This document shows positions 1 through 63,455 of a DNA stretch of 64,000 nt, piece after piece. The stretch comes from Thermoplasmatota archaeon (lineage in GTDB: Archaea > Thermoplasmatota > SW-10-69-26 > JACQPN01 > JAJPHT01): contig DATLCC010000087.1 of assembly GCA_035526585.1 (NCBI GenBank), forward strand, positions 80 to 64,079. The letters are read 5' to 3'. The notes below the pieces were generated by a model. That model did no database searches, was not told the DNA's origin, and was given only the letters and a program-made list of their open reading frames with translations. Both the position numbers and the translations under genes were made by a program. Numbering within the stretch: position 1 is the stretch's first letter; every line of letters begins with the position of its first letter.

Positions 1-1
1 C

Positions 2-4450: not shown

Positions 4451-4497
4451 GAAAACGCTGACCCCTGCCCCCCTGATAAGCGTTCGCCGGGGCGAGC

Positions 4498-5756: not shown

Positions 5757-5767
5757 CCCTCCGAAAC

Positions 5768-5774
5768 GATAAGA
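5768..5774 (+). promoter_or_regulatory. TATA-like box (GATAAGA) about 30 nt upstream of the purE ATG
   Basis: It is the only AT-rich heptamer in the 44-bp divergent intergenic region. The spacing fits a leaderless transcript. Confidence 0.35.
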
Positions 5775-5800
5775 ACCCTGACCCGGTTCGCCGCGCCGGC

Positions 5801-8264: not shown

Positions 8265-9117
8265 GCTTGGGCCGCGGCGCGGGCGCGGGGGCGCCGACGA
8301 GCTCGGCGAGGTCGATCGCGTTGGCGACGGCCTGCGCGCGCGGCGCGTTGTTGAAGTAGCATCGCACTTCGCGTCCCGCCCGCTGATGCTCGCGCACTCG
8401 CTCCGCGACGGGGGCGAGCTCCTCCCGGCGATACAGGTAGTCGTAGCGCGCGCCGTCGCGCAGCGCGCCCTCCTGCGCCCACGCGTCCGCGGCGCGCCCG
8501 TGGAAGCGCAGGTACGCGTGGCGCGCGCCAAGCGGGGCGCGCACGTCGGGCGCGCCGGGGACGTCGGCTTCCACGAGGCACACGTCGCCGGTCGTGAACA
8601 GCTTGTCGAGCATCGGGACGACGCAGCCGTTCTCTACCCAGGACGTGTGGCGCAGCTCGAGGGCGACGCGGCGCTCGGCGAGGGGCGTCAGGGCGTCGAG
8701 GAGCGCGGCCGCGTTCTCGGCCGAGGCGAGGAAGGTGGGCGGCAGCTGCACGAGGACGGCGCCCAGCAGCCCTTCGCCCGCGAGCGGGTCGAGGACTTCG
8801 CGATCGAAGCGCCCGACCCATTCCCGGGCGGCGTCGACGTCGCCCGTGGGGAGCGCTTCGTGCGTGATGGTGCGCGGGAGCTTCAGGCTGTACTCGAAGG
8901 GCGCGCGCTGCTGCAGGGCGACGCCGTCCCGCGACCAGTCGGCGACGAGCGCCTCGTCCGGGAAGCGGTCGAAGGAGGAGCTGAGCTCGACGCTGCGGAA
9001 GCGGGTCGCGTAATGGGCGAGCCACGCCTCGGGGCGGGCGCGCAGGTGGACCGGGTAGAACGGGCCGACCCAGTCGGGGTGGCTCCATCCTGTCGTGCCG
9101 ACGAGCGCCCGCGCCAT
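8236..9117 (-). CDS. DUF72-family protein
   Basis: The internal ATG at 9117 gives MARALVGTTGWSHPDWVGPFYP, the canonical DUF72 N-terminus. The upstream part of the track ORF is Arg/Gly-rich junk. Confidence 0.8.
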   Translation of the reverse strand: MARALVGTTGWSHPDWVGPFYPVHLRARPEAWLAHYATRFRSVELSSSFDRFPDEALVADWSRDGVALQQRAPFEYSLKLPRTITHEALPTGDVDAAREWVGRFDREVLDPLAGEGLLGAVLVQLPPTFLASAENAAALLDALTPLAERRVALELRHTSWVENGCVVPMLDKLFTTGDVCLVEADVPGAPDVRAPLGARHAYLRFHGRAADAWAQEGALRDGARYDYLYRREELAPVAERVREHQRAGREVRCYFNNAPRAQAVANAIDLAELVGAPAPAPRPKLTAQQRLPL

Positions 9118-12326: not shown

Positions 12327-13274
12327 CTAGACGAGCTGCATCGCGAGGAAAGCGCCGACAGCCGCGACCGGAAGGATCCACGCCCCGCGCAGGTTGATCG
12401 TCCGTGAGCGGGCGGGATCCTTCCAACGGATGTCGGACAGCGCGACGAGCGCCGTGATCAGCACGCTCCCGAAGAGGAACACGTCGATCGAGAGCATGTA
12501 GCGATCGAGGAAGATCATGTGCGACAGGCTCGGCAGGCTTGCCGACTGGCCGGCGTGGAACATGACGCTGCTGATCGCCATGTTCGCCGTCAACGCGAAC
12601 CGCGTCGCGATCTTGTCCGCTCCCACAAGGAAGAAGGAGACGGCGGAGATGACCACGAACGCGAGCGGCGGCACGATCACCTTGAGGACTCCGGAGAGCA
12701 CGCTGCGCTCCAGCGTCACGACGAAGCGCGCCTGGCTGTACGGCTCGTCGAAGCTGTAGTCGTTCTGGATCGTCTCGAACGACCAGTTCCGCACCTCCCA
12801 GCCTGCGGCCTGGAAGTCGTCGTCGAGCCCGCTCTTCTCGGTGCGCGGCGCGTACACGAGCTGGCTCTGCGGGAATGCGGTGTCCTCCACGCGGACCTCG
12901 ATCGTCTGGCGGTCGAACGGGTACGCGTCGAAGCGCGGCTCGCTGTACAGGTTGGCCTGGATCCGGTACCAGAGCTCGCGCATGCCCGTGGTCTCGTTCA
13001 CGAGGTCCGCCTGGAGGTCGCGGCTCGTCGCCCGGCCATTCGCGAACTCGAACGCGCCCGGCGTGAAATCGGGGGGCGCGCGTTGCGGGTCCCACGTCAT
13101 GACGAGGTAGAAGTCCAGCACGTAGCTGCCCTGCTTCGCGTCGTAGTTGCCGAGGTTCACGACGACCACCGTGATGTCGACGCGCACGGGATCCTGCGCC
13201 TGCGCAACACCCGACGGAGTGACCACAAGCAGGAGAAGCCCGACGACGACAAGCCACCGCTCCACGAAGGGCAC
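12327..13274 (-). CDS. Pentameric ligand-gated ion channel (Cys-loop receptor / GLIC-ELIC family) homologue
   Basis: A signal peptide is followed by a beta-rich extracellular domain of about 190 aa with the hallmark loop YPFDRQTIEVRVE. Four C-terminal TM helices follow (VLKVIVPPLAFVVISAVSFFLV, ..FALTANMAISSVMF.., ..YMLSIDVFLFGSVLITALV.., ..AWILPVAAVGAFLAMQLV). The start is uncertain: ATG 13355 or 13322, or GTG 13274 or 13265. The GTG starts give a clean signal peptide and lie about 25-30 nt from the only AT-rich site (TTAA 13292-13295). Confidence 0.8.
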   Translation of the reverse strand: MPFVERWLVVVGLLLLVVTPSGVAQAQDPVRVDITVVVVNLGNYDAKQGSYVLDFYLVMTWDPQRAPPDFTPGAFEFANGRATSRDLQADLVNETTGMRELWYRIQANLYSEPRFDAYPFDRQTIEVRVEDTAFPQSQLVYAPRTEKSGLDDDFQAAGWEVRNWSFETIQNDYSFDEPYSQARFVVTLERSVLSGVLKVIVPPLAFVVISAVSFFLVGADKIATRFALTANMAISSVMFHAGQSASLPSLSHMIFLDRYMLSIDVFLFGSVLITALVALSDIRWKDPARSRTINLRGAWILPVAAVGAFLAMQLV

Positions 13275-13346
13275 AGGCAGGAGATCGCCCCTTAACGGTT
13301 TGGTGCGCACCGGAACACCCATCCGGCGCGGCCGCCTGCGAGCCAC

Positions 13347-14207
13347 GTGGCCCATCGCGCCGGGGATATCGTGGACCTCGTGCGCCTCACGCGCCCCGCG
13401 AATGCGTTCGTGGCAGCCGCGGGCGCGTACGTCGGCGCGCTCCTCTCCGGCGCGGCGTGGGTCCCGGAGCGCGCGGTCATCGCCTCAATGATCGCCGCGT
13501 TCACGTTCGCCGCCGCAGGCAACGTGCGCAACGACCTCGGCGACATCGCGATCGACCGCGTCGCGCACCCCGAGCGCCCGCTCGCGCGCGGCAGCATCCA
13601 CGCGGCGCAGGCCCGCCAGCTCGCTGTCGGGCTCTACCTCGTCTCGCTCGCAGCCGCGCTCCTCGTCTCCTGGTGGGGCGCGCTCCTCGTCCTCCTCGCG
13701 CTCCCCCTCATGGAAGCGTACGAACGCTGGGGGAAGGCGCGTGGCCTCCCGGGCAACCTCCTCGTCGCGCTCCTCACCGGCGCCCCCTTCGTCCTTGGCG
13801 CCCTCGCGGGCGGCGGACATGTCGGCCCGGCCGCGCTCGCGGTGGCCGCCCTCGCCGCGCTCGCCACCGCGGGGCGCGAGGTGCTCAAGGACGTGGAGGA
13901 CGTCGAAGCCGACGTCGGCTTCCGCCGCACGCTCCCGATGCGCATCGGCGCGCGCCGCGCAGCGCTCGTCGCGGGCGCGTTCCTCCTTGCCGCGGCCCTC
14001 CTCTCGCCGCTGCCCTTTCTCCTCGAAACCGTTTTAGGCGAATGGTATCTTCTTGGCGTCGTCGCCGCAGACGCCTGTTTCCTCGCCGCCGCGGCGATGG
14101 GCAGCCGCGCGCCAGGACGCGCGCAGCGCCTCGTGAAGCTGGGCATGGTCGCGGCGCTCCTCGCGCTCGTCCTGGGGCGCGCAAGCTTCGTGGAGATGAC
14201 CCTGTGA
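13347..14207 (+). CDS. UbiA-family prenyltransferase, probable digeranylgeranylglyceryl phosphate (DGGGP) synthase
   Basis: 286 aa and polytopic. The Asp-rich motifs are NVRNDLGDIAIDR and KDVEDVEAD. It is translationally coupled (GTGA) to the GGGP synthase. Confidence 0.8.
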   Translation: MAHRAGDIVDLVRLTRPANAFVAAAGAYVGALLSGAAWVPERAVIASMIAAFTFAAAGNVRNDLGDIAIDRVAHPERPLARGSIHAAQARQLAVGLYLVSLAAALLVSWWGALLVLLALPLMEAYERWGKARGLPGNLLVALLTGAPFVLGALAGGGHVGPAALAVAALAALATAGREVLKDVEDVEADVGFRRTLPMRIGARRAALVAGAFLLAAALLSPLPFLLETVLGEWYLLGVVAADACFLAAAAMGSRAPGRAQRLVKLGMVAALLALVLGRASFVEMTL

Positions 14208-30631: not shown

Positions 30632-30962
30632 GGGTATCAGGTGATGGGTCGTGGTGTTCGAGCGTAGGCGAGGAAAGGAGCGCGAGGCACGCGGGCGGTG
30701 GGGGACCGCTGCGGGCGTGGCGCTCGTCGGGCCGCCGAGGCAGCCCGGGACCCATCACGCACAGACGTCGAGGGGGGCGCGCGGGCCGTTGCAGGAAAAT
30801 GCGTCGTTCAGTGCGTCACCCAACCTATGCGACTTTTTGCGTCGGCTTCGGGTATAAGCGCGCCGATGCGAGTCGCATGGCCCAGCTCAAGAATGACCAC
30901 ATGTGGGCAATAGCGGCCAGTTTCCAACAATGCCGCGTGCCTGCCGGCGCGGCATTCCTGTC

Positions 30963-31242
30963 AGGCCGAAATGTCTCTGATGATCAAGTTCGGGATGCCT
31001 GACAAGCGAGGATGTGGGTGACGGAGGTTGCCCCTGCTCATGCCACGACACGGGGGGTCTCTTTGTTGCGCCCCCAGCGGACTTCCCTCCGGGCGTCACG
31101 CAGCGCGCGCGACATCACCGCCTTCACCGATGCGGGCCGCATCGAAGGCTCCGTTGTTCGCTTGGCGAGCCGGATCTCCCCGTCACTCCCCTCCTCGCTT
31201 CGTGGGGGACGCGAAACTTTTCATCAGAAAAATGTCGCCCCC
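30963..31242. mobile_element. ORF-less MITE-like unit of about 280 bp, bounded by an inverted pair of the 62-bp palindrome-tipped repeat
   Basis: The left copy is 30963-31024 (+): CCGAAATGTCTCTGATGATCAAGTTCGG + ..GCGAGGATGTGGGTGACGG. The right copy is 31177-31242 (-): reverse complement GCGACATTTTTCTGATGAAAAGTTTCGC + GTCCCCCACGAAGCGAGGAGGGGAGTGACGG. The palindromes face outward and the tails face inward. Confidence 0.45.
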
Positions 31243-31370
31243 GGCGACCTTGTCTCTGCTTAGGCCGTGCGCCATCGCGGTCGATGCGCGCGAGCGCCTC
31301 CGCTCGTCGCGTCGGAAGTAGAAGAAAAGGAGCGGGCCGCGAAGCGGCCCCGCCCACGGAAAGTTCGCCC

Positions 31371-43691: not shown

Positions 43692-44264
43692 CTATTCGAC
43701 GGGCTCGTCCAGCTCCCCGGCTTCCAGCGCGCCCGTGTCCCACTCGTCGAGGAGCCGGTTGGGCTCGGCCAGGATCGTGGGGTCGAGGAGCATCTCGAGG
43801 CGCTGCGCCCCGCGGCGCTCCTCCGCCTCGAGCCCGGCGAGCGTCTCGCGCAGCAGGAGGATCAGCTTGCGACGCGCGGTGGGCTCGTGTCCGTACTCGC
43901 TCGACCACTTGCGCCAGGCCGGGCGCCGGTGCGCGAGCTTCCACTTCGTTCCTTCCATCACGGTCTGATAGCTGTTCGAGTCGAGCTTGCGCACGCGCTG
44001 GTGGGCGAGGACGTACCAGTGGAACATCGTCCCTTCGGGCGCACCGCTGCCGGCGGGAGCGCTCGTGCGGCGGCGCTTGGTCGCGCGGAAGCTGAAGTCC
44101 CAGCGGTCGGGGGCGACCTTGCGCTCGCGCCAGCGGCCCTCGGGATAGCCCCAGTCGTGGGCGCCGCCGACGGGCATGCCCGTGTAGGTCCGACCGTCGA
44201 AGACTTTCGTCGCGTCGTAGCCCACGAGCACTCTTCGCGCGTCCTCGCCTTCAAAGCGCGCCAA
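43692..44264 (-). CDS. Hypothetical protein (Trp/Arg-rich, acidic C-terminal tail)
   Basis: 190 aa. The frame has a good GC3 pattern. It overlaps the upstream SMUG1-like gene by 14 nt. No recognisable motif. Confidence 0.5.
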   Translation of the reverse strand: MARFEGEDARRVLVGYDATKVFDGRTYTGMPVGGAHDWGYPEGRWRERKVAPDRWDFSFRATKRRRTSAPAGSGAPEGTMFHWYVLAHQRVRKLDSNSYQTVMEGTKWKLAHRRPAWRKWSSEYGHEPTARRKLILLLRETLAGLEAEERRGAQRLEMLLDPTILAEPNRLLDEWDTGALEAGELDEPVE

Positions 44265-44949
44265 GGCCCCCGAGCTGCTCCTCTGCCTGCCTGGCCCACC
44301 CCTTGTTGGCGACGGGGGACGCGGGGCTCGGATGGAGCACGCGGCCGATCCTCGCGCGGTCCCCGACCACGCGGCGTGCCCGCTCCTCGGCGAACCGGCC
44401 GACGCCCACGACGATCTCCGGCGCGAGCGCGCGCACGACGGCGTCGAGGTGCGCGTCGCACGCGGTCTCGAGCGCTTCGACCGCTTTCGCGCCCAGCTGC
44501 GGCGGCGTCAGGTTCTTGCCGGCCTCGTCGAAGAAAAGGAGCGGGCAGTAGTTGACGATGAAGAAGCGCTCGAAGAACGCGGGCGCGGCGCCGTAGCGCC
44601 CTTGCGCCCAGCCATAGAGGCGCGAACCGGAGGGCTCGCGGCGCGCGCAGGCGAAGCCGGTGACGGGGCGCTTGGGGTGCGCTCGGGCGGGCTGCGCGTG
44701 CTCGCCGGAGATCCCCATCCAGTCGCGCACGTAGACGACGTCGCCGAAGGGGACTCCCGTCTGGCCCATGCCCCACGGACCCGGGTTCATGCCGACGAGG
44801 AGCGCGCGGCGCTTCCCCTTCCCGAACGTCTCGGCATACTTCGCGTGCGCGCCCCAGGCGTAGCGCAGCGGGTTGTAGACGTAGGGCGCGAGATGGTCGA
44901 GCGCGTCGCAACGGTCGCGAAGCGTCTTCGCCGCCTCGAGCACGGACAT
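44251..44949 (-). CDS. SMUG1-family (family 3) uracil-DNA glycosylase, copy A
   Basis: 232 aa. GMNPGPWGMGQTGVPFG and HPSPASPVANKGW match the two SMUG1 signature motifs (GMNPGPFGMAQTGVPFG / HPSPRNPQANKGW). Confidence 0.8.
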   Translation of the reverse strand: MSVLEAAKTLRDRCDALDHLAPYVYNPLRYAWGAHAKYAETFGKGKRRALLVGMNPGPWGMGQTGVPFGDVVYVRDWMGISGEHAQPARAHPKRPVTGFACARREPSGSRLYGWAQGRYGAAPAFFERFFIVNYCPLLFFDEAGKNLTPPQLGAKAVEALETACDAHLDAVVRALAPEIVVGVGRFAEERARRVVGDRARIGRVLHPSPASPVANKGWARQAEEQLGGLGAL

Positions 44950-44973
44950 GCGACGGGCAAGCGCCTGACCGCT

Positions 44974-45654
44974 CTAAAGGATGGCGTCGAGATCCTCGCC
45001 CCATCCGGCGTTGTTGGCCGGGTTCGCGGGCGACGGGTGACGGACGGCATGGATCGCGGCAGAGGGCGCGATGCGCCGCACCTGCGCCTCGACGAACTGG
45101 CCCATCGGGACGAGGACGCAGGGCGCGAGCGCGTCCAACGCATCCTCGAGCCAGGCGTCGCACGCCGGCTGCAGGCGCGCGAGCGCGTGCTTCGCGAGCG
45201 ACGGCAGCGGAATGTTGCGCCCCTGTGCATCGAGGAGAAGGAGCGGGCAATAATTGGTCACGAAGCAGCGCTCGAAGAACGCCTTCGCGGTGCCGAATCG
45301 CCGCTTGGCCCAGCCGTAGAATTTGCCGCCGCTGGGATCGCTGCGGGTGGAATCGAAGCCGAGGATCGGCCGCTTCGGATGCGTCCTCAGAGGTGGCGCC
45401 ACGTGGCCCCCGATGCCCATCCACCCGTGCGCCCACGCGACGTCCGCGAAGGGGACGCCCGTCTGCGCCATGCCCCACGGACCCGGGTTCATGCCGACGA
45501 ACAAGGCGCGCCCGCGGGCGTCGCCGTAGGCGCGGAGGTACTTCTCGTGCGGATCCCAGGCGTAGCGGAGCGGGTGGTAGGCGTGCGCGACGCCGGGGAG
45601 CTCCACCTCGTCCAGCGCGTCCCTCAGGCGCGCTGCTGCCTCCACGAGCCGCAT
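44974..45654 (-). CDS. SMUG1-family (family 3) uracil-DNA glycosylase, copy B
   Basis: 226 aa with GMNPGPWGMAQTGVPFA and HPSPANPANNAGW. It is a tandem paralogue of copy A. Confidence 0.8.
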   Translation of the reverse strand: MRLVEAAARLRDALDEVELPGVAHAYHPLRYAWDPHEKYLRAYGDARGRALFVGMNPGPWGMAQTGVPFADVAWAHGWMGIGGHVAPPLRTHPKRPILGFDSTRSDPSGGKFYGWAKRRFGTAKAFFERCFVTNYCPLLLLDAQGRNIPLPSLAKHALARLQPACDAWLEDALDALAPCVLVPMGQFVEAQVRRIAPSAAIHAVRHPSPANPANNAGWGEDLDAIL

Positions 45655-45699: not shown

Positions 45700-48600
45700 T
45701 CACCGAGCCCGGGCCGTGGGCGCCTTCTTTCCGCTCGAAGTCGGCGCGGCAGCGCCGACTTCGCGAGCGAGGAGCGGTTTGAGGAACTGGCCGGTGTAGC
45801 TTTCTGGGACCGCGGCGACTTGTTCGGGCGTGCCTTCGGCGACGATGCGGCCCCCTTTTTCGCCGCCTTCGGGACCGAGGTCGACGAGCCAGTCGGCGTG
45901 TTTGATGACGTCGAGGTTGTGCTCGATGACGAGGACCGTGTTGCCGGTGTCCGCAAGGCGGTCGAGGACGCCGAGGAGGCGCTCGATGTCGGCGAAGTGC
46001 AGCCCTGTCGTGGGCTCGTCGAGGATGTAGAGCGTCTTTCCGGTGGCGCGCTTCTGGAGCTCGGTCGCGAGCTTCACGCGCTGGGCTTCGCCGCCGGAAA
46101 GGGTGGTGCTGCTCTGCCCCAGGCGCATGTAGCCGAGGCCGACGTCGAGAAGCGTCTGGAGGGCGCGCTTCATCGCGGGCACGGCCTCGAAGAACGTGTG
46201 CGCTTCCTCGACCGTCATGTCGAGGACCTCCTTGATCGTCTTGCCCTTGTAGCGCACCTGGAGGGTCTCGCGGTTGTAGCGCGCGCCTTTGCATTCTTCG
46301 CAGGGGACGTACACGTCGGCGAGGAAGTGCATCTCGATCTTCACGGTGCCGTCGCCCTCGCACGCCTCGCAGCGGCCGCCTTTCACGTTGAAGCTGAACC
46401 TCCCCGGCTGGTAGCCGCGCGACTTCGCGTCGGGCGTCTGGGCGTAGAGGTCGCGGATGTTCGTGAAGAGGCCCGTGTAGGTCGCCGGGTTCGAGCGCGG
46501 CGTGCGGCCGATGGGCGACTGGTCGATGATGATGACCTTGTCGATCTGCTCGATCCCCTCGAGCTTCGCGTGCTTCCCGGGCTGCTCCATCGCGCCGTTG
46601 AGCTTGCGAGCGAGCGCCTTGTAGAGCACGTCGTTGATGAGCGTGGACTTTCCGGATCCCGACACGCCGGTGACGCAGACGAACTTGCCGAGCGGAAAGC
46701 GCGCGTCGACGTTCTTGAGGTTGTTCTCGCGAGCGTTCTTCACGACGAGCGCCTTGCCGGTGCCTTCGCGCCGAACCGAGGGGATCGAGATCTGGCGCTT
46801 GCCGCTCATGAACTGCCCCGTGATGCTCTTCGGGTTGCGCAGGATCTGCGCGGGCGTCCCTTCGGCGATGATCTGCCCGCCGTGCTCCCCGGCACCGGGC
46901 CCCAGGTCCACGACCCAGTCCGCCGCGCGGATCATCTCCTCGTCGTGCTCGACGACAAGGAGCGTGTTGCCAAGCTCGCGCAGCCCCTTCAGCGACTCGA
47001 TGAGACGCTGGTTGTCGCGCTGGTGAAGGCCGATCGAGGGCTCGTCCAGGATGTAGAGCACGCCGACGAGCCCGGAGCCTATCTGCGTGGCGAGGCGGAT
47101 GCGCTGCCCTTCGCCGCCCGAGAGCGTCGCGCTGCTGCGATCCAGCGTCAGGTAGTCCAGCCCGACGTCGATCATGAACTTGAGCCGCTCGCGGATCTCC
47201 TTCACGACCTCGTGCGCGATGTGCTTCGAGCGGTCGTCGAGCGACTGCTCGTACTCGAGGAACCACCCGTAGAGACGCCCGACGGGCATGGACGAGACGT
47301 CGGCGATGCTCTTCCCGGCCACGAGGACATGCAGGATCTCAGGCTTCAACCGCTGCCCCTTGCACGCCTTGCAAGGCTTCGATGCCATGAGCCCCTGGAT
47401 CGACTCGCGCTTCGACTCGCTCTCCGTCTCCTTGAAGTAGCGCTGGAGGCGAGGCACGATGCCTTCGAACATGTCGTACCCCTCCCAGATGCGGCCGCTC
47501 GACATCTCGTACTTCACCTTGATGCGGCGATCCGTCCCGTAGAGGATGACCTCCTTCGCGCTGTCGCTGAGCGACTTCCACGGCGTGGCCATGCTGAACT
47601 TGAACGCGCGCGCCAGCTGCTCCAGCTCGTAGAGTACCCACGGCATCGAGCGCTTCACCGTCCCATGCAGGCAGCCATCGTGGAGCGACGCCTCCGCGTC
47701 GGCGATGATCACGTCGGGATCGACCTCGAGCGAGAAGCCCAGGCCCACGCAATCCGGACACGCCCCGTGCGGCGCGTTGAACGAGAACGATCGCGGAGCG
47801 AGCTCAGCCATCGAGAATCCGCATTTCGTGCACGCGAACTTCTCGCTGTAGACGTCCAGCTGCGGCTCGACGTCCTTCAAGACCCGCATCTCGCCCTCGC
47901 CCAGCTTCAGGCACTGCTCGACGGAATCGGTGAGGCGCTGGCGCGCGTCCGCCGACCGGTCCGCCTTGCGGACCACGATGCGGTCGACGACGATCTCGAT
48001 CGTGTGCTTCTCGTAGCGCGCGAGCTTCCAGTCGTCGTCCACGGTGCCCAGCGCGCCGTTCACCCGCACGCGCTCGAACCCTTGCGACTTGTACTCGGCG
48101 AAATTCTTCTTGTACTCGCCCTTGCGGTCCTTCACGACCGGCGCGAGGAGATGCAGCTTCGTCCCCTCGGGGTAGGCGAGCAGCCGCTCGACGATCCCGT
48201 CGGGCGTCTGCCCCTTGATCGGCGTGCCATCCTTCGGACAGTGCGGCTGGCCGAGGTTCGCGTAGAGGACGCGAAGGTAGTCGAAGATCTCCGTGATCGT
48301 GCCGACGGTGGAGCGAGGATTCTTCGACGTCGTCTTCTGGTCGATCGAGATCGCGGGGGAGAGGCCTTCGATGCTGTCGCAGTCGGGCTTCTCCATCTGG
48401 CCGAGGAACTGGCGCGCGTAGGCAGAGAGCGACTCGACGTAACGCCGCTGGCCTTCCGCGTAGAGCGTATCGAAGGCCAGGCTCGACTTGCCCGACCCCG
48501 AGAGGCCGGTGATGACCACGAGCTTGTCTCGGGGGAGCGTCACGTCCACGTTCTTGAGGTTGTGCTCGCGCGCACCCCTTACGATGATCTCGTCTCTCAC
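45700..48600 (-). CDS. uvrA: Excinuclease ABC subunit A
   Basis: 966 aa with a GTG start. It has two ABC ATPase modules ([14 protein letters not shown]; [10 protein letters not shown]) and Zn-finger cysteines. Confidence 0.97.
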
Positions 48601-48796
48601 CTAGAATCGGCCGCCCATCCCTCCGTATCGTATTTAGCGGTTTGTCGGTGGCGACCGAATGGACGGGACTCGCCTCGGGGAAGGGGCCCATCCGGACCCG
48701 TCCGGATCGAGGGCCGAAGGCCCGAGAGAGGACGAATCGCAGCGAGAGACCAGTTCTTCGTCCGACCCCAGATCCGGCGGCGGCGGTGGGGCGGCT

Positions 48797-48850
48797 GGAT
48801 CCACCGGGCGCCAGGTGGATCCAGGTGGATCCAGGTGGATCCAGGTGGCT
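48797..48850. repeat. Phased 10-bp tandem array: GGATCCACC-gggcg-(CCAGGTGGAT)x3-CCAGGTGGCT
   Basis: Read directly from the sequence. It uses the same 10-mer as the array at 63366-63415 but in reverse orientation. It abuts the stop of the asparaginase-II-like gene and lies about 200-250 nt upstream of the uvrA start. Confidence 0.9.
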
Positions 48851-49853
48851 AAGGGCCCAGCGTCAGGACCGGCTTCACGCGCCCCACGACGCGCCCGCTC
48901 CAGTTCGTGAGCGTCGGCATCCACCAGGTGCCCAGCACCTCGAACGCGCGACCTTCCAACCAGGCGAGCTGGCGGAGCGCCTCGATCGTGGCGGGCGGGA
49001 CCGGTCGACCTGCGCCGTCCTCCGCCTTGAGGAAGAGGCCCATGCCGGTCCGCAGGTCGCCGACGCCTTCGCACCCTTCCGCGCCGGCTTTGGCGACGAG
49101 CCGATCGTCGCTCGCGCCCATGAGGTCCGTGTCGAAGCTTTCCCCGCCGCCCACCATCTCGGGATGGTGCACCATCGCGTCGCGCAGGCGCGCGAGCGCG
49201 GCGGCGGACGGCGGCGCGACGCCCTGCGGCATGGCGAGCCGCGCGAAGAGGAGCGCCGCGTTCGACAGCGGGAGCGCGAAGTTGGGCGCGCTGCATCCGT
49301 CCGTGCCGACGCGCACGTCGCCCTGCGGCATGCCGGCGACCTCGGCCACGCTGCGAAGGATCGCTTGCTGCGCAGCCGAGTCGCGTTGCCAGTAGTCCGC
49401 GGGGTCGCCCCCCAGATGCTTCTGCAGGAGCATCATGCCCGCGTGCTTCCCGCTGCAGTTGTGGTGCAGGGGCGTCGTGCGGCCGCCCTTCAGCGCATCT
49501 TTCGCGAGCTTCGAGCGCGGCGCGTGCGTCCCGCACTGGAGGAGTGCCGCCGATACGCCGCCCTTCTCGAGCATGCGGGCCGCGGTCTCGACGTGCAGGG
49601 GCTCGCCGCTGTGGCTTCCGCAGCAGAGCGCGAGCTCCTGCTTGGTGAGCCCGAAGGCATCCGCGGCCCCCGACGTCACGAGCGGGACGGCCTGGAAGGG
49701 CTTCGCCGCGCTGCGCAGATACGTGACGAACGATGCGTCGCCCGCCTCGTGCACGACGCTGCCTGCCCCGTCCACGACGACCACGTGGACGCGATGCACG
49801 CTTTCCACGACGTCGCCACGCACGATCTCGACACCCACGGGGGCCGGCTTCAC
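48849..49853 (-). CDS. Asparaginase-II family protein (Rhizobium-type L-asparaginase)
   Basis: 334 aa. VRGDVVESVHRVHVVVVD..YLRSAAKPFQA..NCSGKHAGM match the Asparaginase_II profile. Confidence 0.8.
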   Translation of the reverse strand: MKPAPVGVEIVRGDVVESVHRVHVVVVDGAGSVVHEAGDASFVTYLRSAAKPFQAVPLVTSGAADAFGLTKQELALCCGSHSGEPLHVETAARMLEKGGVSAALLQCGTHAPRSKLAKDALKGGRTTPLHHNCSGKHAGMMLLQKHLGGDPADYWQRDSAAQQAILRSVAEVAGMPQGDVRVGTDGCSAPNFALPLSNAALLFARLAMPQGVAPPSAAALARLRDAMVHHPEMVGGGESFDTDLMGASDDRLVAKAGAEGCEGVGDLRTGMGLFLKAEDGAGRPVPPATIEALRQLAWLEGRAFEVLGTWWMPTLTNWSGRVVGRVKPVLTLGP

Positions 49854-49889
49854 GCGGGAGCCAAGCCCCTCCGACGAAAGAGCCTTTCC

Positions 49890-50243
49890 TCACCCGCCGC
49901 CCACGGCGCCCGGCTGCCGGCGGAGCGCATCCGGGGCCGCGCCTGCTTCGAGCTGCGCGACGAAGGCCGTGACGGCGGCAAGCGGGGCGAGCTCGAGCGC
50001 GTACACGCGGCCGCGGCCGGCGGCGCGATCGGCGACGAGGCCGGCTTCGCGCAGGAGAGCGAGGTGCTTCGACACGGCGGGGCGGCTGATGCGGGAGAAT
50101 TCGGACGCGATCTCGCCCGCGGGTCGGGAGCCGCGCGCGAGGAGCGCGAGGATCTGGCGGCGCGTGTCGTCGGCGAGCGCGCGGTAGACGAGCTCCTGCT
50201 GGGCGGGGGCCTTGCGGCGCGCGCGGGTCTTGGGGGCGGCCAT
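49890..50243 (-). CDS. ArsR/SmtB-family transcriptional regulator
   Basis: 117 aa. YRALADDTRRQILALLARGSRPAGEIASEFSRISRPAVSKHLALLREAGLV is a canonical ArsR wHTH. Confidence 0.85.
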   Translation of the reverse strand: MAAPKTRARRKAPAQQELVYRALADDTRRQILALLARGSRPAGEIASEFSRISRPAVSKHLALLREAGLVADRAAGRGRVYALELAPLAAVTAFVAQLEAGAAPDALRRQPGAVGGG

Positions 50244-50270
50244 CGCATTGTGTAACCGTTCGGTTACGCA

Positions 50271-51473
50271 TCAAGCTTGCGTTGCGCGCCGCAGCGTGAC
50301 GATCGCGACCTCGGGCCAGGCGCCCACGCGCAGCGGGACCGCCCAGTAGTTCGTGCCCGGATGGATGTAGAGCGAGGACGCGTCGCGCTGATAGCTTCCC
50401 ATGGCAAGCTCGAGGAACGGGCTCGCGAGGCTCCACTTCAGCCATGGGACCGAGAGCTGTCCGTGGTGCGTGTGCCCGGAGAGCGTGAGGTGCACTCCGC
50501 GCGCCTGGAGCGCGGGCCAGAGGGCGGGGTTGTGCGCGAGGGCGAGGACGAAGGCGCCCGGCGGCACGTCGGCGAGCGTCTTCGGGATGTCGGGCGCCAC
50601 CTCGGGCTGCGCGTCGCCGAACGTGCGCAGCCCAGCCGGGTCGCCCGTGCCGGCGATCCAAAGCCGCGCGCCTTGGCGCTCGATGGGCGTCGCTTCGTTC
50701 ACGAGGACGCGCATCCCGGCCGCCTGCATCCCGTCGCGCACGCCCGGCCAACCCGCATACACGTCGTGGTTGCCGGCGATCGCATAGACGCCCAACGGCG
50801 CGCGAAGCGGCCCGAAGAACGCGGCGAAGCGCGCGACGTCCACGTCGTAGTCGTCCACCTGGTCGCCGGTGTGCGCGACGAGGTCGGGCTTCTCGCGCTC
50901 GACCGCGCGCACGATGCGGCGGAGGAAGCGGGCGCTCGTGTGCGGCCCCACGTGGAGGTCGGAGAGCTGCGCGATGCGCACGCCATCGAACGCCTCGGGA
51001 AGATCGGCGAACGTGAACGTGAGCCGTCGGACGACGAGCGCCTTGGAGCCGACGTAGCCCACGACGATGAGGAGGAGCGCCGCCGCGCCCGCGAGGAGCG
51101 CGCCCGTGCGTCCCGCCGCGAGCGGCGCGTGGAAAGGGAGGCCCAGCACGAAGCCGAACGCGCCGGCAAGACTTGCAGGAAGAAGCACGATCTGCGCGTA
51201 CCAGAAGGGGCGCATCACGAAGAGTCGTGTGGCTTTCGTGGGGTATGCGTCCGGACGGAAGCTGCGGATGAGGAGGACGATCGCAAGGAGGAGGTAGGCG
51301 TAGATGGCGACGAAAGGCCACCAGCCGCCGGGCGCAAGGCCGTGCAGGAGTGCCGCCACGACCGCGAGGTGGAGCGTGGTCCAACCGGTGAAGACGAGGG
51401 CGACGCGCGGGAGGAAGCTGGATGTCGTGGGCTTCTCCCGTGTGGGTGCTGCGGTGGCCGTCGCGTCCGTCAC
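50271..51473 (-). CDS. Membrane-anchored metallophosphoesterase
   Basis: N-terminal TM helices are followed by the calcineurin-like motifs QLSDLHVG, TGDQVD, GNHD and SGHTHHG. The track ORF extends to 51617 across the palindromic repeat. The first plausible start inside it is GTG 51473. Confidence 0.75.
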   Translation of the reverse strand: MTDATATAAPTREKPTTSSFLPRVALVFTGWTTLHLAVVAALLHGLAPGGWWPFVAIYAYLLLAIVLLIRSFRPDAYPTKATRLFVMRPFWYAQIVLLPASLAGAFGFVLGLPFHAPLAAGRTGALLAGAAALLLIVVGYVGSKALVVRRLTFTFADLPEAFDGVRIAQLSDLHVGPHTSARFLRRIVRAVEREKPDLVAHTGDQVDDYDVDVARFAAFFGPLRAPLGVYAIAGNHDVYAGWPGVRDGMQAAGMRVLVNEATPIERQGARLWIAGTGDPAGLRTFGDAQPEVAPDIPKTLADVPPGAFVLALAHNPALWPALQARGVHLTLSGHTHHGQLSVPWLKWSLASPFLELAMGSYQRDASSLYIHPGTNYWAVPLRVGAWPEVAIVTLRRATQA

Positions 51474-51536
51474 AGTGCCAGTGTCGCTGCGCTTCCTCTT
51501 GGCGCTTTCTGCGACGCTCCGAGCACATCCTTGCCT

Positions 51537-52104
51537 GGGCCGAAATTTTTCTGCGGAAAAATTTCGGGTCCCCCATTCGGCAAGGACGGGAGTGGCGGTG
51601 TAGCCTGATCTCGGCAAAGCCTACCATCGGCTTCCACTTGTCACCGAGGACTGCCACCCCCTGCTTCCCACAAGATCGGACTATCGTTGTCGACGGGCGC
51701 CGGATCGGACGATGAAAGACTAATGATAGCATCGCGCATCATACTACACAGGGATCGCACATGCCGGTCAACGTGAAAGTCATTGCTGCGAGCGCAATTG
51801 CCATCTTGGCCCTACTTTTGGGATGGGCGGCCGTGATGGCTATCAAAGAGTGGATCACGACGAACCCCACATACGCCCTGGCGACGCTAGTGGTCGTCGG
51901 AGGCGTTGTTGTTACCGTTGCCGGTCCACGGCGCGGAGGCCGGTTCACGCCGCTCATCGGAGCGGGTATGATCATTGCGGACGTGGTGCTCTTCTATTTC
52001 GCCTAAGCCTGCACCATGAGGGGCCGGCGTCAAGAGCAAGATAGCACCTCACACCCATCCCCGCCAGCCGTCGTGCGAAATTTTCCGCAGAAGAATTTCG
52101 CTCC
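51537..52104. mobile_element. MITE-like 568-bp cassette bounded by an inverted pair of the 62-bp palindrome-tipped repeat
   Basis: The left end is 51537-51598 (+), with core CCGAAATTTTTCTGCGGAAAAATTTCGG at 51540-51567. The right end is 52047-52104 (-), with core at 52075-52101. The interior is visibly lower in GC and carries a single atypical ORF. Confidence 0.5.
51761..52006 (+). CDS. Small hydrophobic protein (2-3 TM) encoded inside the cassette
   Basis: 81 aa: MPVNVKVIAASAIAILALLLGWAAVMAI..LATLVVVGGVVVTVAG..LIGAGMIIADVVLFYFA. Its codon usage (att, gct, cta, ctt, gtt, ggt, tat, and a TAA stop) is unlike the neighbouring genes. Confidence 0.45.
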   Translation: MPVNVKVIAASAIAILALLLGWAAVMAIKEWITTNPTYALATLVVVGGVVVTVAGPRRGGRFTPLIGAGMIIADVVLFYFA

Positions 52105-52121
52105 CTCGCGTGAGCGCGGGC

Positions 52122-54122
52122 TCACGCGGGTGGCTTCTCCGCTTCCAGACGCATCCGTATCTCCCGGAGCTTGTCCCTGTACATCGCGGCCGTCTCGAAG
52201 TCGAGCCGCTTGGCCGCGGCACGCATCTTCGCCTCCAGCTCGTCGGCGAGGACGAGCAGGGAATCCGTGTCCGCCTCGGCGAGCTTGATCTCCACTTCCT
52301 GCTCCTTCCTCTCCCGCATCTTGCGGAGCGCCTTCACGATCGTCTGCGGCGTGATGCCGCGAAGCTCATTGTGCTCCTCCTGCTTCGCGCGGCGGCGTCG
52401 CGTCTCGTCGATCGCGCGCTGCATGGAGCCCGTGATCTGATCCGCATAGCAGAGCACCTTGCCGTTCACGTTGCGCGCCGCGCGACCGAACGTCTGGATC
52501 AGGGAGGTCTCGCTCCTGAGGAAGCCTTCCTTGTCCGCGTCGAAGATCGCGACGAGGGAGACCTCGGGAAGATCGAGGCCTTCGCGCAGGAGATTGATGC
52601 CCACGAGCACGTCGAACTGGCCACTGCGCAGATCCTCGAGCAGGTCCACGCGGTCGAGCGTCGTCACGTCGCTGTGCAGGTAGCGCACGCGGACGCCGTG
52701 GCTCGCGTAGTAGTCGGTGAGGTCCTCCGCCATGCGCTTCGTGAGCGTCGTCACGAGGACGCGCTCGTTCTTCGCGGCGCGAGCGCGGATCTCGCCCAGG
52801 AGATCGTCGACCTGGCCCGAGGACGGGCGGATCTCGATCACGGGATCCAGGAGGCCGGTCGGGCGGACGACCTGCTCGGCGATCGTCTCGCTCACCTCGA
52901 GCTCGTACGGGCCCGGAGTCGCGCTCACGTGCACGGTCTCGGTGGTGCGGCCGCGGAACTCGTCGAAGGTGAGGGGACGATTGTCGACCGCGCTCGGCAG
53001 GCGGAAGCCGAAGTCGACGAGGACCTGCTTGCGGCTGCGATCGCCATGGTACATGCCGCGCACCTGCGGCACGGTGACGTGCGACTCGTCGATGATCGTG
53101 AGGAAACCCTCTGGGAAGTAGTCGAGGAGCGTGTAGGGCGGCTCGCCGGCCTTCTTGCCGGTGAAGTGGCGTGAGTAGTTCTCGATGCCGTTCATGTAGC
53201 CGATCTCGCGCAGCATCTCGAGGTCGTACTTCGTGCGCTGCTCCAGCCGCTGAGCTTCGAGGAGCTTCCCCTGCCGCTGGAACTCGGCGAGCCGCGCCTC
53301 CAGCTCGACGGTGATGCTCTTCGCGACCCGCTCGATCTCGCTTGGAGAGGAGACGAAATGCTCCGCGGGGTGGATGACGGCTTCGTTCAGCTTCCTCCGC
53401 ACGACGCCCGTGATCGGATCCACGAGCGAGATGCTCTCCAGCTCGTCGCCGAAAAGCTCGATCCGGTGCACGTTCTCGCCGTCGGGCGAGCGCACCTCGA
53501 CGACGTCGCCGCGGGCGCGGAACTGGCCCCAGTCGGGCGCCTGGTCGTTGCGCTTGTAGTAGATGTCGATGAGCCGGCGGAGCAGGACCTCCCGGTCGAG
53601 CTTGTCACCGACCTTCAGCACAAGGTGCTGGTCGTGGTACTCCTTGGGGTCGCCCAGGCCATAGATGCAGGAGACGGACGCGACGACGATGACGTCGGGC
53701 CGCGTCATGAGCGCCGCGGTCGTGGCGTGGCGCATCTTCTCGATCTCCTCGTTCCTGTCCGACTCCTTCGCGATGTAGAGGTCCTTCGACGGGACGTACG
53801 CCTCGGGCTGGTAGTAGTCGAAGTAGCTGACCCAGTAGGAGACCGCGTTGTCGGGGAAGAACTCCTTCATCTCCTCGTAGAGTTGCGCGGCGAGTGTCTT
53901 GTTGTGCGACACGATGAGCGTCGGCCGGCCGATCTGCTGGATGACGTTCGCCATCGTGTACGTCTTGCCCGAGCCCGTGACGCCCAGGAGCGTCTGGTCG
54001 CGCTGCCCCTTCCGGATCCCCTCCACGAGCGTCTTGATCGCCTCGGGCTGGTCGCCCGCCGGCGCGTAGGGCGCCCGCAGGTCGAAGGGGGACTTCGCGA
54101 CGGACGCGGATCTCGGGGCCAC
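52122..54122 (-). CDS. uvrB: Excinuclease ABC subunit B
   Basis: The track ORF runs to 54998, antisense through a tRNA. GTG 54122 gives (M)[28 protein letters not shown].., aligned with the canonical UvrB N-terminus. It has [10 protein letters not shown] and a C-terminal UVR domain, and is 666 aa. Confidence 0.93.
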
Positions 54123-54206
54123 TGCCCCGAACGAGGCCGCGCTCCGGGATGAAGCTTCGCGGAGGGCGGCCGAAAGCGGGAAAAGCCACGAGGGCCCTCG
54201 AAGCGC

Positions 54207-54812
54207 GTGGGCCGCCTCCTGCTCGCCATCCTCCTTCTCGCGCCGGCGGCAGCGGCCGCCCCGGTCGCGATCGAACCCACGGGCGACGCGGAAGCCGACG
54301 CCGTCGCCGTGAGCGGCACGAAAGACGCGCACAGCAGCTGCAGCGCCTTCGGCACGATCCCCTGCGCTGCCGTGAGCGGCACGGGGAACGCAAGCGGCTC
54401 CTCGCGCGTGGAGGGAGCGCATCTCCTCGTCTGCCCGACGAACGGCTTCGGCACGCCGCACTGCCTCGTGAACGGCGACGACGACCAGGAGGTCGCGAGC
54501 GCGAGCCTCGAGGGCCACGCGGAAGGAGGCGCGGCAAGCCTCGCCCCCACGGGCCGCGCCAACGGCTCCCTCGTCGCCGTCGGACGCGATGGCGCCCGCG
54601 GGAGCCTCCTCGCCGTCGGAGGCGACGCCGATGGGACGATCGCGGTGTCGACGGGCCAGGCGCATGGGATCGTCGCCGTCGGGGCGGGCGAGGCGAGGGG
54701 GTTCATCGCCGCCTCGGCGGCCGGGGACGCGGAAGCCGAGGGGTGCCTGGCGACGCCTCTTGACCCATGCCATGAGGGCGTGGCTGTGGATCTCGAGCCC
54801 GAGCAACGATGA
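54207..54812 (+). CDS. Small secreted Gly/Ala-rich repeat protein with three Cys-x7/9-Cys loops
   Basis: 201 aa with a GTG start. The signal peptide is [18 protein letters not shown]. It has repeats of the type G-x-[AD]-x-G-x-[LIV]-[LIV]-A-V ([30 protein letters not shown]). The frame is opposite the shadow of uvrB. Confidence 0.5.
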
Positions 54813-54815
54813 CCA

Positions 54816-54878
54816 GGGCCGAAATTTTTCTGCGGAAAAATTTCGGGTCCCCGCAGCGGCAAGGATGGGGGTGACGGG
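54816..54878 (+). repeat. Solo copy of the 62-bp palindrome-tipped repeat
   Basis: Its core at 54819-54846 is identical to the one at 51540-51567. The tail is GTCCCCGCAGCGGCAAGGATGGGGGTGACGG. The core starts 6 nt after the stop of ORF 54207..54812, so it may act as that gene's oligo-T terminator. Confidence 0.85.
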
Positions 54879-54945
54879 AATGTCTCTCGCCCGCCCCGGA
54901 GCCGAGCCTTTTTCAGCGGGGACCCTTTGCCAAGGATATCCCATT

Positions 54946-55029
54946 GCCGAGGTGGCAGAGCGGCCCAATGCGCCAGTCTTGAAAACTGGTGGGCGCAAGT
55001 CCTCGCAGGTTCAAATCCTGTCCTCGGCG
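54946..55029 (+). tRNA. tRNA-Ser (anticodon UGA), class II with a long variable arm
   Basis: Hand-folded. The acceptor is GCCGAGG/CCTCGGC and the anticodon stem is CCAGT/ACTGG with loop CTTGAAA. The T arm is GCAGG-TTCAAAT-CCTGT and the discriminator is G. Confidence 0.9.
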
Positions 55030-55053
55030 CTAGCAAGGATCGTTGACGCCCCT

Positions 55054-55173
55054 GCCGGTGGGGCGGCCCAATGCGCCCGTCCCGCAGCTTGCTGCGGCGT
55101 GCGGCGCGCCCGCGGGTACGCCGCGTTGAAAACTGGTGGCAAGTCCTCGCAGGGTCACGTCCTGTCCTCGGCG
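55054..55173 (+). pseudogene. Aberrant tRNA-Ser paralogue with a 44-nt GC-rich insertion in the anticodon loop and a degenerate T-loop
   Basis: It aligns to the intact gene 25 nt upstream (GGCGGCCCAATGCGCC..TTGAAAACTGGTGG..CAAGTCCTCGCAGG..CCTGTCCTCGGCGC). There is a 2-nt deletion in the 5' acceptor and an A-to-C change in the anticodon stem. The insertion is CCGCAGCTTGCTGCGGCGTGCGGCGCGCCCGCGGGTACGCCGCG, and the T-loop is GTCACGT instead of TTCAAAT. Confidence 0.55.
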
Positions 55174-55190
55174 CTTCCACGATCGCGGGT

Positions 55191-55211
55191 GCTAGGTGAC
55201 GGGTACCTAGC
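55191..55211. repeat. Hairpin repeat GCTAGGT-GACGGGT-ACCTAGC (copy 1 of 3)
   Basis: Read directly from the sequence. It is nested inside an outer palindrome GATCGCG..CGCGATC (55181-55227). Confidence 0.85.
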
Positions 55212-55255
55212 CCTCGCGGTACGCGATCAGGCGCTTTCCTCGTGGGCGCGGTTCC

Positions 55256-55278
55256 GGCTAGGTGAGGGGTACCTAGCC
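55256..55278. repeat. Hairpin repeat GGCTAGGT-GAGGGGT-ACCTAGCC (copy 2 of 3)
   Basis: Read directly from the sequence. It lies about 100 nt upstream of the transketolase TATA box. Confidence 0.85.
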
Positions 55279-55377
55279 ACATGTCACCCCCCGGTTACGC
55301 ATCCCGCGCTCCGGTCGCATCGGAAGCCCCCGATGCGGTCTCGCGAAGCGGAGCTCGCCGTCCACGCGCGGGGACAC

Positions 55378-62896: not shown

Positions 62897-62956
62897 CTCG
62901 CCCGCCCTTCGGGCGGGCTCGTGAAGGAGGGCCCTGCGGGGCCCATCATACGCACC

Positions 62957-63077
62957 GGGCGCTTAGATCAGTTGGTAGATCACTCCCTTGGCATCGGCAG
63001 TCGACGCGTGCTGCGGCACGCGTCTCTGCCGCACTGCTGTGCGGAGAGGCCGCGAGTTCGAATCTCGCGAGAGCCCA
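62957..63077 (+). tRNA. tRNA-Ala(GGC)-like gene with a 48-nt intron-like insertion after the anticodon; aberrant acceptor (possible pseudogene)
   Basis: The 5' half, through the anticodon loop (GGGCGCTTAGATCAGTTGGTAGATCACTCCCTTGGCAT), is identical to the intact tRNA-Ala 156 nt downstream. An insertion lies at 62995-63042 (CGGCAG-TC-GACGCGTGC-TGCG-GCACGCGTC-T-CTGCCG..). The T arm is intact. The 3' acceptor is AGAGCCC, giving G3:C70 instead of G3:U70, one G-A mismatch and one extra nucleotide. Confidence 0.5.
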
Positions 63078-63112
63078 CCGGAGATCGGCCGGACGGAACC
63101 GATCGACACACC

Positions 63113-63185
63113 GGGCGCTTAGATCAGTTGGTAGATCACTCCCTTGGCATGGGAGAGGCCGCGAGTTCGAATCTCGCAGCGTCCA
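63113..63185 (+). tRNA. tRNA-Ala (anticodon GGC)
   Basis: Hand-folded. The acceptor GGGCGCT/AGCGTCC contains the G3:U70 identity pair. The anticodon stem is CTCCC/GGGAG with loop TTGGCAT. The T arm is GCGAG-TTCGAAT-CTCGC. Confidence 0.9.
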
Positions 63186-63365
63186 TTCAAGAAGGGTCGT
63201 CCGCGCTGTCGCGCGCCCGTGTGGCGAGCGCGGCGTCGTGACTGCAGCGGCGTACTGTCTTTTCTGAGCCTCATGGTGAAGGGCCGAAGCGCGGCGTTTG
63301 CCGCGCACGAGGGGGGAGCACCGCGGATCGGGCGGTTCGTGCCCGTGCGGCACCTGGAGTCAGTT

Positions 63366-63415
63366 GGATCCACCTGGATCCACCTGGATCCACCTGGCAC
63401 CACCTGGATCCACCT
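63366..63415. repeat. Phased 10-bp tandem array: (GGATCCACCT)x3-GGCACCACCT-GGATCCACCT
   Basis: Read directly from the sequence. It has five head-to-tail units with no spacers and is flanked on both sides by CACCTGGAG. Confidence 0.95.
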
Positions 63416-63455
63416 GGAGGCCGCTGACCCCGATCGATCGCCAATGGCCCCGCGC

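Follow-up and report, generated by a model that had tools for sequence, protein, structure and literature searches.

Paired hairpin repeats resembling bacterial REP dimers in a soil Thermoplasmatota archaeon

The stretch of DNA analysed here (the window; 64,000 nucleotides of contig DATLCC010000087.1 from a Thermoplasmatota archaeon) carries five copies of a hairpin-forming repeat, two of which stand in inverted orientation at the ends of a 568-bp segment between uvrB and a metallophosphoesterase gene. A first-pass annotation, made from the letters of the sequence, had likened this segment to a MITE (a miniature transposable element with inverted repeats) enclosing an open reading frame (ORF) for an 81-residue membrane protein. 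Our follow-up shows that the 568-bp "cassette" is one hairpin doublet inside an inserted block of ~600 bp, with ~440 bp of lower-GC DNA between its halves. We read the repeats as a lineage-specific, dispersed family of extragenic hairpins in a soil archaeon, similar to the repetitive extragenic palindromic (REP) dimers and the REP doublets forming hairpins (REPINs) of bacteria, with one doublet holding foreign DNA between its partners; we put the probability of this reading at roughly 55%.

The inserted block at the uvrB locus

The locus comprises the following features, listed by coordinates and strand.

50271-51473, minus strand: metallophosphoesterase gene (HUR69351.1, 400 amino acids), a flanking host gene identified by Pfam, with its start codon 66 nt from the palindrome
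51510-52109: block of ~600 bp absent from two relatives (L142 and L152), including the two units of pair 2 and all the DNA that separates them
51533-51601, plus strand: repeat unit copy 3, left member of pair 2 (nhmmer E 1.9e-16), with a perfect 28-nt palindrome at 51540-51567
51602-52041: interior of pair 2, ~440 bp, 58% GC, not common to any other copy of the family
51761-52006, plus strand: gene VM370_08895 (hypothetical protein at NCBI), 81 amino acids, hydrophobic, probably a membrane protein
52042-52107, minus strand: repeat unit copy 4, right member of pair 2 (nhmmer E 1.4e-11), diverged
52122-54122, minus strand: uvrB, a flanking host gene identified by Pfam, its product 100% identical to HUR69353.1

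We compared the uvrB neighbourhoods of eleven related contigs, together with contig L148, which encodes a homolog of the 81-residue protein (178 kb in total). That the organism is an archaeon, a point not available to the first-pass annotation, follows from UvrB, which matches at 100% identity a protein from a metagenome-assembled genome (MAG) named Candidatus Thermoplasmatota archaeon. The nearest UvrB relatives, at 75-85% identity, come from other MAGs of this name and from soil metagenome contigs; the window itself also encodes MCM, NMD3 and a thermosome subunit. The position of the segment between uvrB and a phosphoesterase gene was confirmed by Pfam, and its description as lower-GC DNA bracketed by an inverted pair agrees with a GC content of 58% in the interior compared with 69.7% in the window. 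From the uvrB stop to the metallophosphoesterase start, the distance is 45 bp in contig L142 (84% UvrB identity) and 51 bp in contig L152 (78%), and a three-way alignment of the window with both contains a single gap of ~600 bp, with alignable flanks on either side. Empty sites, which the first-pass annotation had proposed to look for among relatives, are thus present in both a closer and a more distant relative, and the block was therefore most likely gained in the lineage of the window. The same annotation had proposed to tabulate flanking direct repeats; none beyond chance was detected at four inverted pairs of the family, where the longest words shared by the flanks measure 5-6 nt, equal to the means of shuffled sequences, and no target-site duplication is visible.

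The gene inside pair 2 is preceded by a TATA-like box, CTAATGATAG, ~35 nt upstream. It ends in TAA, and its GC content at third codon positions (GC3) is 0.70 compared with 0.85-0.98 in the neighbouring genes. A word-indexed protein search with the 81-residue sequence returned only the ORF itself. As determined by an exhaustive HMMER scan of 1.84 billion representatives, its sole real homolog is the protein P0122 (97 amino acids, 63% identity, E 6.5e-23), and the ratio of nonsynonymous to synonymous substitution (dN/dS) between the two is 0.19, which identifies the ORF as a protein-coding gene under purifying selection. Its earlier description as foreign-looking therefore holds good, and for a real gene with a homolog on a virus-like or plasmid-like contig. 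The further statement that the segment contains no other ORF has to be narrowed: others exist, and this one is the only one annotated and the only one with a homolog.

The contig that encodes P0122, L148 (ENA ERZ1758406 NM_forest_Scaff0222154; 8.8 kb, positions 1-8817; 68% GC), carries ~20 small, closely spaced genes. Almost all of them share a strand, and the opposite one is taken by P0122 and the gene next downstream. There are genes for Mom-like DNA modification, for Dam-type and other DNA-methyltransferases and for a PD-(D/E)XK protein. L148 is probably a fragment of an archaeal virus or plasmid. A BLAST search of the cassette against plasmid and phage collections gave no match. The ORF is the only stretch in which the DNA of the window resembles that of L148 (68.6% over 207 nt), and L148 lacks the repeat; the interior of pair 2 is thus of foreign origin and stands apart from the repeat family.

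Comparison with L020, L021, L142, L145, L146, L147, L152, L153 and L154 marks the neighbourhood that extends from uvrB to uvrA (45700-55281) as a hot spot where genes are gained and lost. Genes of the Metallophos, ArsR, BNR, TrkA/TrkH and ABC transporter types, as well as hypothetical genes, vary between the conserved genes for UvrB, asparaginase II, UvrA and the uracil-DNA glycosylase (UDG) family, and the repeat doublets of the window and of L021 sit at such variable junctions.

The repeat unit and its arrangement in doublets

The remaining copies of the repeat lie elsewhere in the window.

30959-31027, plus strand: repeat unit copy 1, left member of pair 1 (nhmmer E 2.3e-11), diverged
31028-31177: spacer of pair 1, ~150 nt, GC-rich
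31178-31246, minus strand: repeat unit copy 2, right member of pair 1 (nhmmer E 1.1e-13), diverged
54811-54880, plus strand: repeat unit copy 5, solo and best-preserved (nhmmer E 2.3e-17), with a perfect palindrome at 54819-54846

A whole-unit profile search of the window detected exactly five copies (E 2e-11 to 2e-17), in agreement with a direct-repeat scan and with the alignment, and recovered every position given by the first-pass annotation to within a few bases. The unit is a compound hairpin of 60-75 nt, followed on its 3′ side by a conserved tail, GGATGGGGGTGACGG. Single-strand folds place an AT-rich inner stem of 11-12 bp under a TGCG loop and, in most copies, a GC-rich outer stem around it. 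The perfect palindrome originally ascribed to the repeat is found in two copies, where the 28-nt sequence CCGAAATTTTTC-TGCG-GAAAAATTTCGG is free of mismatches (51540-51567 and 54819-54846; expected number in dinucleotide-preserving shuffles, 0.00). These two are well preserved; the other three are decayed, ~62-70% identical to the reference, and their palindromes are imperfect. The alignment also bears out that the copies at 51537 and 52104 are inverted, with palindromes pointing outward and tails inward, and the ten-residue pseudo-peptide that recurs in shadow ORFs proved to be the translation of the palindrome.

In the alignment, copy 1 has the degenerate palindrome CCGAAATGTCTC-TGAT-GATCAAGTTCGG and the tail GGATGTGGGTGACGG; its partner, copy 2, reads GCGACATTTTTC-TGAT-GAAAAGTTTCGC, with the tail GGAGGGGAGTGACGG. 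Copy 3 carries the tail GGCAAGGACGGGAGTGGCGG, and its left flank TCCTTGCC (~51524-51531) pairs with GGCAAGGA of the tail region to form a longer hairpin; the DNA fold of this copy amounts to -19.1 kcal/mol (z -3.87). Copy 4, GCGAAATTCTTC-TGCG-GAAAATTTCGC with the tail GGATGGGTGTGAGG, begins ~15-18 nt past the uvrB stop codon. Partners thus have their loop variant in common, which is TGAT for those of pair 1 and TGCG for those of pair 2. Copy 5 has the tail GGCAAGGATGGGGGTGACGG and a DNA fold z-score of -4.11; it starts directly past the stop of the hypothetical gene VM370_08905 and ends 66 nt upstream of a tRNA-Ser gene. A search for a degenerate partner of this solo copy gave an alignment score inside the range of shuffled sequences, that is, no remnant above chance. 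All five tails of the window have the form GC[A/G]AGGAnGnGnGTGA/G in common.

At 54859-54882, the tail of the best-preserved unit reads GGGGGTGA, which resembles a Shine-Dalgarno sequence of the kind expected from 16S 3′ ends in general. An ATG 5 nt later opens a long shadow ORF through the tRNA-Ser gene, likely a source of spurious gene calls in such MAGs. Two of the units adjoin pre-existing hairpins: a GC-rich one, CGCGTGAGC-GCGG-GCTCACGCG (52108-52130), overlaps the uvrB stop codon beside copy 4 (52042-52107), and another, AATGCCGCG-N10-CGCGGCATT (30929-30956), lies immediately outside the unit at 30963.

The tail GGATGGGGGTGACGG is the most conserved part of the unit across the two genomes with the family, and similarity stops abruptly past its end. 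The outer stems vary in sequence from copy to copy with their complementarity kept, as seen in TGTCAGGC/GCCTGACA at copy 30963, in (T)CCTTGCC + TGGG / CCCA + GGCAAGG(A) at copy 51537 and in GCGGCCC/GGGCCGC in the related contig L021. The inner stem changes on both arms between sub-types, with A:T and G:C interchanged at position 4 and symmetric insertions of 1 or 2 bp on both arms; in the consensus fold, 6 of 16 pairs have changes on both sides. Single units fold with z-scores of -3.0 to -4.1 in intact copies and of -1.4 to -1.8 in decayed ones. Changes in the stems that keep their pairing, together with the abrupt end of similarity past a conserved tail, suggest that selection acts on a hairpin together with a signal in single-stranded form, and not on a duplex operator. 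No covariance model of Rfam 15 reached its gathering score anywhere in the window, and around pairs 1 and 2 a cut-off of E<=1 brought up nothing either.

Our view of the family as a whole draws on the 64 kb of the window and on 22 kb of L021 (84% UvrB identity), which is less than 5% of each genome. Among the relative contigs, L021 alone carries the family: three intergenic loci inside 12 kb contain five clear units and a degenerate one (E-values in the family from 1e-11 to 1e-19). A profile search of eleven other related loci, ~156 kb, detected zero copies. Every L021 locus is an inverted doublet with tails inward and a spacer of 45-63 nt, one of them with the degenerate partner. The L021 doublets join a type-1 stem, GCGAATTTTTC-TGCG-GAAAAATTCGC, with a type-2 stem, GCGGTTTTTCGC-TGCG-GCGAAAAACCGC, and occur in either orientation along the contig; the doublet L021-A folds as a single long hairpin (-75.2 kcal/mol, z -6.4). 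In the window, copies on the plus strand have CCGAAA..TTTCGG and those on the minus strand GCGAAA..TTTCGC, and the partners of pair 2 are ~65% alike.

In total there are five doublets, two in the window and three in L021, and one further copy is solo. The interiors of the pairs measure 45, 51, ~63, 150 and 440 nt and have no convincing similarity to one another: the spacer of pair 1 (31028-31177) matches none of the other spacers, and homology among the spacers of the L021 doublets is weak and unconvincing. Copy sites are non-orthologous between the two genomes. All six loci are extragenic, within about 4-125 nt of the 3′ end of a gene, at a density of three loci in the 64-kb window and three in the 22 kb of L021.

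Two sequence patterns were also scanned against each of three contig collections (genome, metagenome and viral). In every collection one pattern had no match. The other pattern had 19 matches among genome contigs, all due to chance and in AT-rich or unrelated genomes; at least 120 among metagenome contigs, where all the matches listed were chance hits and none had the left arm of the palindrome; and 3 among viral contigs, again chance matches to AT-rich contigs. A protein search with concatenated six-frame translations of the units, aimed at spurious gene calls over other copies, scored nothing.

Origin and role of the family

Bacterial REP dimers are arranged head-to-head or tail-to-tail with spacers of 20-100 bp, are often heterodimers of stem or loop variants and lie downstream of ORFs; REP singlets are remnants, and DNA can be inserted between REP partners (PMC3733652). 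The anatomy of the archaeal repeat matches this description, and it is on this match that our REP-dimer- or REPIN-like reading is founded. In common with REP dimers, REPINs and the bacterial interspersed mosaic elements (BIMEs) of E. coli, the family consists of extragenic hairpin units in inverted pairs with a variable spacer, and a doublet folds as one long hairpin. There are likewise two partner sub-types (Y and Z in BIMEs), a location mostly downstream of ORFs and no target duplication, and, as with REP dimers and REPINs, singlets occur and DNA has been inserted between partners. As far as sequence goes, the family is new, its doublet architecture being common to it and REPINs.

Under this REP-dimer- or REPIN-like reading, the units would spread by copy-and-paste as single-stranded DNA hairpins recognised by a trans-acting, structure-specific enzyme. 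The most likely candidate would be a single-tyrosine transposase of the histidine-hydrophobic-histidine class (HUH/Y1; similar to those of IS200 or to the REP-associated tyrosine transposases, RAYTs) that reads hairpin and tail and duplicates no target. It is suggested by the hairpin-plus-tail design, by the lack of target duplications and by IS200/IS605 being the only Y1 transposase class reported in archaea (PMC6006769). The ORF-bearing DNA would have arrived separately, between the partners, and would not be the element's own interior. Since the copies adjoin the 3′ ends of genes, they may secondarily serve as transcript-end hairpins or oligo-T terminators.

Several observations weigh against this reading. 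Pfam scans of window ORFs and of the fetched loci, including the genes beside the L021 copies, turned up no transposase of whatever type, which for the window agrees with the first-pass annotation. The units are 60-75 nt long compared with 20-40 nt in classical REPs, and no copy has a GTAG tag at the foot of the hairpin. The window copies are 62-88% alike, and none of the doublets was of the recent, near-identical kind; any activity may thus lie far in the past, or there may be none. Bacterial REP dimers and REPINs run to tens to hundreds of copies per genome and have a cognate single-copy RAYT gene, usually flanked by the repeats; the copies counted here come from two stretches of 64 and 22 kb. 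A binding site for a host protein would account just as well for a tail and loop conserved in both genomes, and the ~600-bp block may have arrived in one event or in several. There are other departures from the bacterial systems: the inner stem is AT-rich in a genome of 70% GC, the hairpin is followed by a G-rich tail of 15 nt in place of the GTAG/CGTC tag that REPs carry at the hairpin foot, the host is an archaeon and no RAYT was found in the scanned ORFs. GACG, the complement of CGTC, does occur in 6 of 10 tails, ~8-30 nt away from the hairpin foot. Membership in the REPIN-RAYT system is not claimed, since the repeat has neither tag where REPs carry it, the ORFs scanned gave no transposase and the copies counted come from 86 kb.

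Two further systems have features in common with the family. The TIR repeats of TIRtrons, which flank TIRYT genes for RAYT-like tyrosine transposases (Di Nocera et al. 2013), resemble it in being longer, in some cases self-complementary and organised in moderately abundant dimer families. Some of them have the motif GGGGWSAS, to which the best-preserved tails here (GGGGTGAC) conform; with a full fit in 2 of 10 copies, this is a weak lead. Unlike TIR repeats, for which the published examples are bacterial, no copy here has a tyrosine transposase gene beside it. The ends of IS200/IS605 elements and of their derivatives, the palindrome-associated transposable elements (PATEs), are also subterminal hairpins with conserved flanking bases that are recognised as single-stranded DNA and cause no target duplication, but these ends are not inverted repeats of one another, and neither tnpA nor tnpB is associated with the family.

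The reading first proposed for the locus takes the 568-bp segment as a non-autonomous DDE-type transposon with 62-bp terminal inverted repeats and the ORF as cargo. As a claim of mobility it is partly supported: the repeats form a dispersed, multi-copy intergenic family with a further inverted pair in the window and three in L021 at non-orthologous sites, and the units stand in inverted orientation at the two ends of a block that two relatives lack and that contains no transposase. MITEs of archaea and bacteria are likewise small, non-coding and intergenic, with inverted ends and presence or absence between relatives. However, to regard the 568-bp unit as a MITE with 62-bp terminal inverted repeats, whose own interior would include the ORF, is probably wrong, because target-site duplications are absent at all four pairs, the interiors are unrelated and vary from 45 to 440 nt, with just 45-63 nt between the units of a typical pair, and the partners belong to different sub-types that are ~65% alike. 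Moreover, each supposed terminal repeat is itself a perfect or near-perfect hairpin with pairing kept by compensatory changes, one copy is solo, and the ORF has its homolog elsewhere, without repeats. A classical ORF-carrying MITE is thus less likely than the REP-dimer- or REPIN-like reading, and we regard it as decidedly improbable. An immobile host sequence, multiplied by ordinary duplication and kept by selection, is an unlikely explanation too. Each palindrome would then serve either as an archaeal terminator that works in both directions (a hairpin with T5 on both strands) or as the operator of a dimeric DNA-binding protein, with the tail as a second contact, and this would account for the location of every locus next to a gene 3′ end, for the 5 of the window's 14 T5/A5 runs that fall in repeat units and for a tail and loop nearly identical in two genomes whose other intergenic DNA barely aligns. 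Yet the family is absent from the ~156 kb of the eleven other related loci, orthologous gene ends included, occupies different sites in the two genomes that have it and is decaying in several copies. Stem sequences that change while their pairing stays argue for structure over a sequence-specific duplex operator, and 14 T5/A5 runs in 64 kb are far below the ~50 genes, so that such runs are not the general terminator of this genome.

A portable archaeal promoter would explain why similarity breaks off right after the tail, much as it would where transcription or translation begins. On either strand, the half-palindrome CCGAAA plus TTTTTC would act as B recognition element (BRE) plus TATA box; the tail GGGGGTGA would be a Shine-Dalgarno sequence, and the unit would drive the expression of the DNA beyond it. 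CCGAAA followed by a T-rich box does resemble promoters upstream of genes in the window genome and in L021, and an ATG stands 5 nt past the tail in the copy at 54816. Against this, the L021 variants have no CGAAA element, typical TATA boxes here are TTATA-like and not TTTTTC, and paired units would fire into gene-free spacers of 45-63 nt. The ATG after copy 54816 opens the shadow ORF through tRNA-Ser, the 81-residue gene and the tRNA-Ser gene have their own, closer TATA-like boxes, and palindromy and outer stems are left unexplained; we consider this promoter reading very improbable. An array of origin recognition boxes (ORBs), with a dyad plus G-string inverted around an unwinding element of an archaeal replication origin, is effectively refuted by the density of the loci (three in the 64-kb window, three in 12 kb of L021) and by the scan of window ORFs, in which no orc1/cdc6 gene appeared and only MCM was found, ~20 kb from the nearest unit. 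In favour of the ORB reading are a superficial likeness, a short dyad followed by a G-run, and the inverted placement of pair 2 around a lower-GC segment; against it, most spacers are 45-63 nt long and GC-rich instead of AT-rich unwinding elements.

Some narrower candidates were rejected. Bacterial readings (a sigma-70, sigma-54 or extracytoplasmic function (ECF) promoter, or an SOS box) do not apply because the organism is archaeal. A promoter for tRNA-Ser was discarded, as this gene has its own TATA-like box, CTTTTTCA, ~34 nt upstream and other tRNA genes have no unit. CTGATGA in two copies brought a C/D-box small RNA into consideration, but the box spacing is wrong and other copies read CTGCGGA. 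An operator of the nearby ArsR regulator was dropped, the same regulator gene being present in L152 without a unit.

Other features of the window and wider meaning

The tRNA-Ser(TGA) gene downstream of copy 5 (54946-55030) is followed by a degenerate tRNA-Ser-like copy (to 55178) with a ~44-nt insert before the anticodon loop and a damaged T-loop; in L021, a complete tRNA-Ser and a partial one adjoin each other at 9690-9860. This arrangement may be the scar of an old integration or a duplicate that bears an intron and is decaying. Tandem arrays of 10-bp units (GGATCCACCT / AGGTGGATCC) at 48776-48868 and 63335-63437, inverted and 14.5 kb apart, bracket the whole segment from the asparaginase gene to tRNA-Ala. 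A tRNA-Ala-like sequence at 62953-63090, for which neither ARAGORN nor Rfam made a call, has its 5′ half in common with the adjacent tRNA-Ala(GGC) (63113-63185) and a ~50-nt insert after the anticodon region that may mark an intron or a pseudogene. Two tandem paralogous UDG-family genes (44251-45654), present in one or two copies in relatives, explain the direct repeats D3 and D15. A 342-residue ORF on the minus strand (12327-13355) has weak Pfam matches, near or below cut-offs (E ~2.5e-6), to pentameric ligand-gated ion channels (both the ligand-binding and the transmembrane domain), which, if real, would be unusual in an archaeon.

For the annotation of GC-rich MAGs, the repeat is of practical consequence, as it creates shadow ORFs and extended gene calls, and it marks synteny breakpoints around the uvrA and uvrB genes. 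The locus also shows how a small, virus-related membrane-protein gene can lodge in a host chromosome. If the family amounts to only a few decaying copies, it would be an ordinary lineage-specific intergenic repeat.

REPINs have been stated as not detected in archaea (bioRxiv 10.1101/2021.07.10.451892), and a 2025 survey of archaea dealt with generic intergenic palindromes under a loose definition of REP. On this background, we tentatively advance a bolder proposal, which we hold to be rather doubtful, namely that the doublets may constitute the first REPIN-like or TIRtron-like system in Archaea. They would be a vertically inherited population, maintained in a lineage of Thermoplasmatota by a hairpin-specific single-strand transposase, with the tail GGATGGGGGTGACGG as its recognition or cleavage signal and the spacers as landing sites for foreign genes. 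If true, REP and REPIN biology, described as bacterial, would extend to the other prokaryotic domain, and the family would indicate that Archaea have an as yet undiscovered enzyme for reading DNA hairpins.

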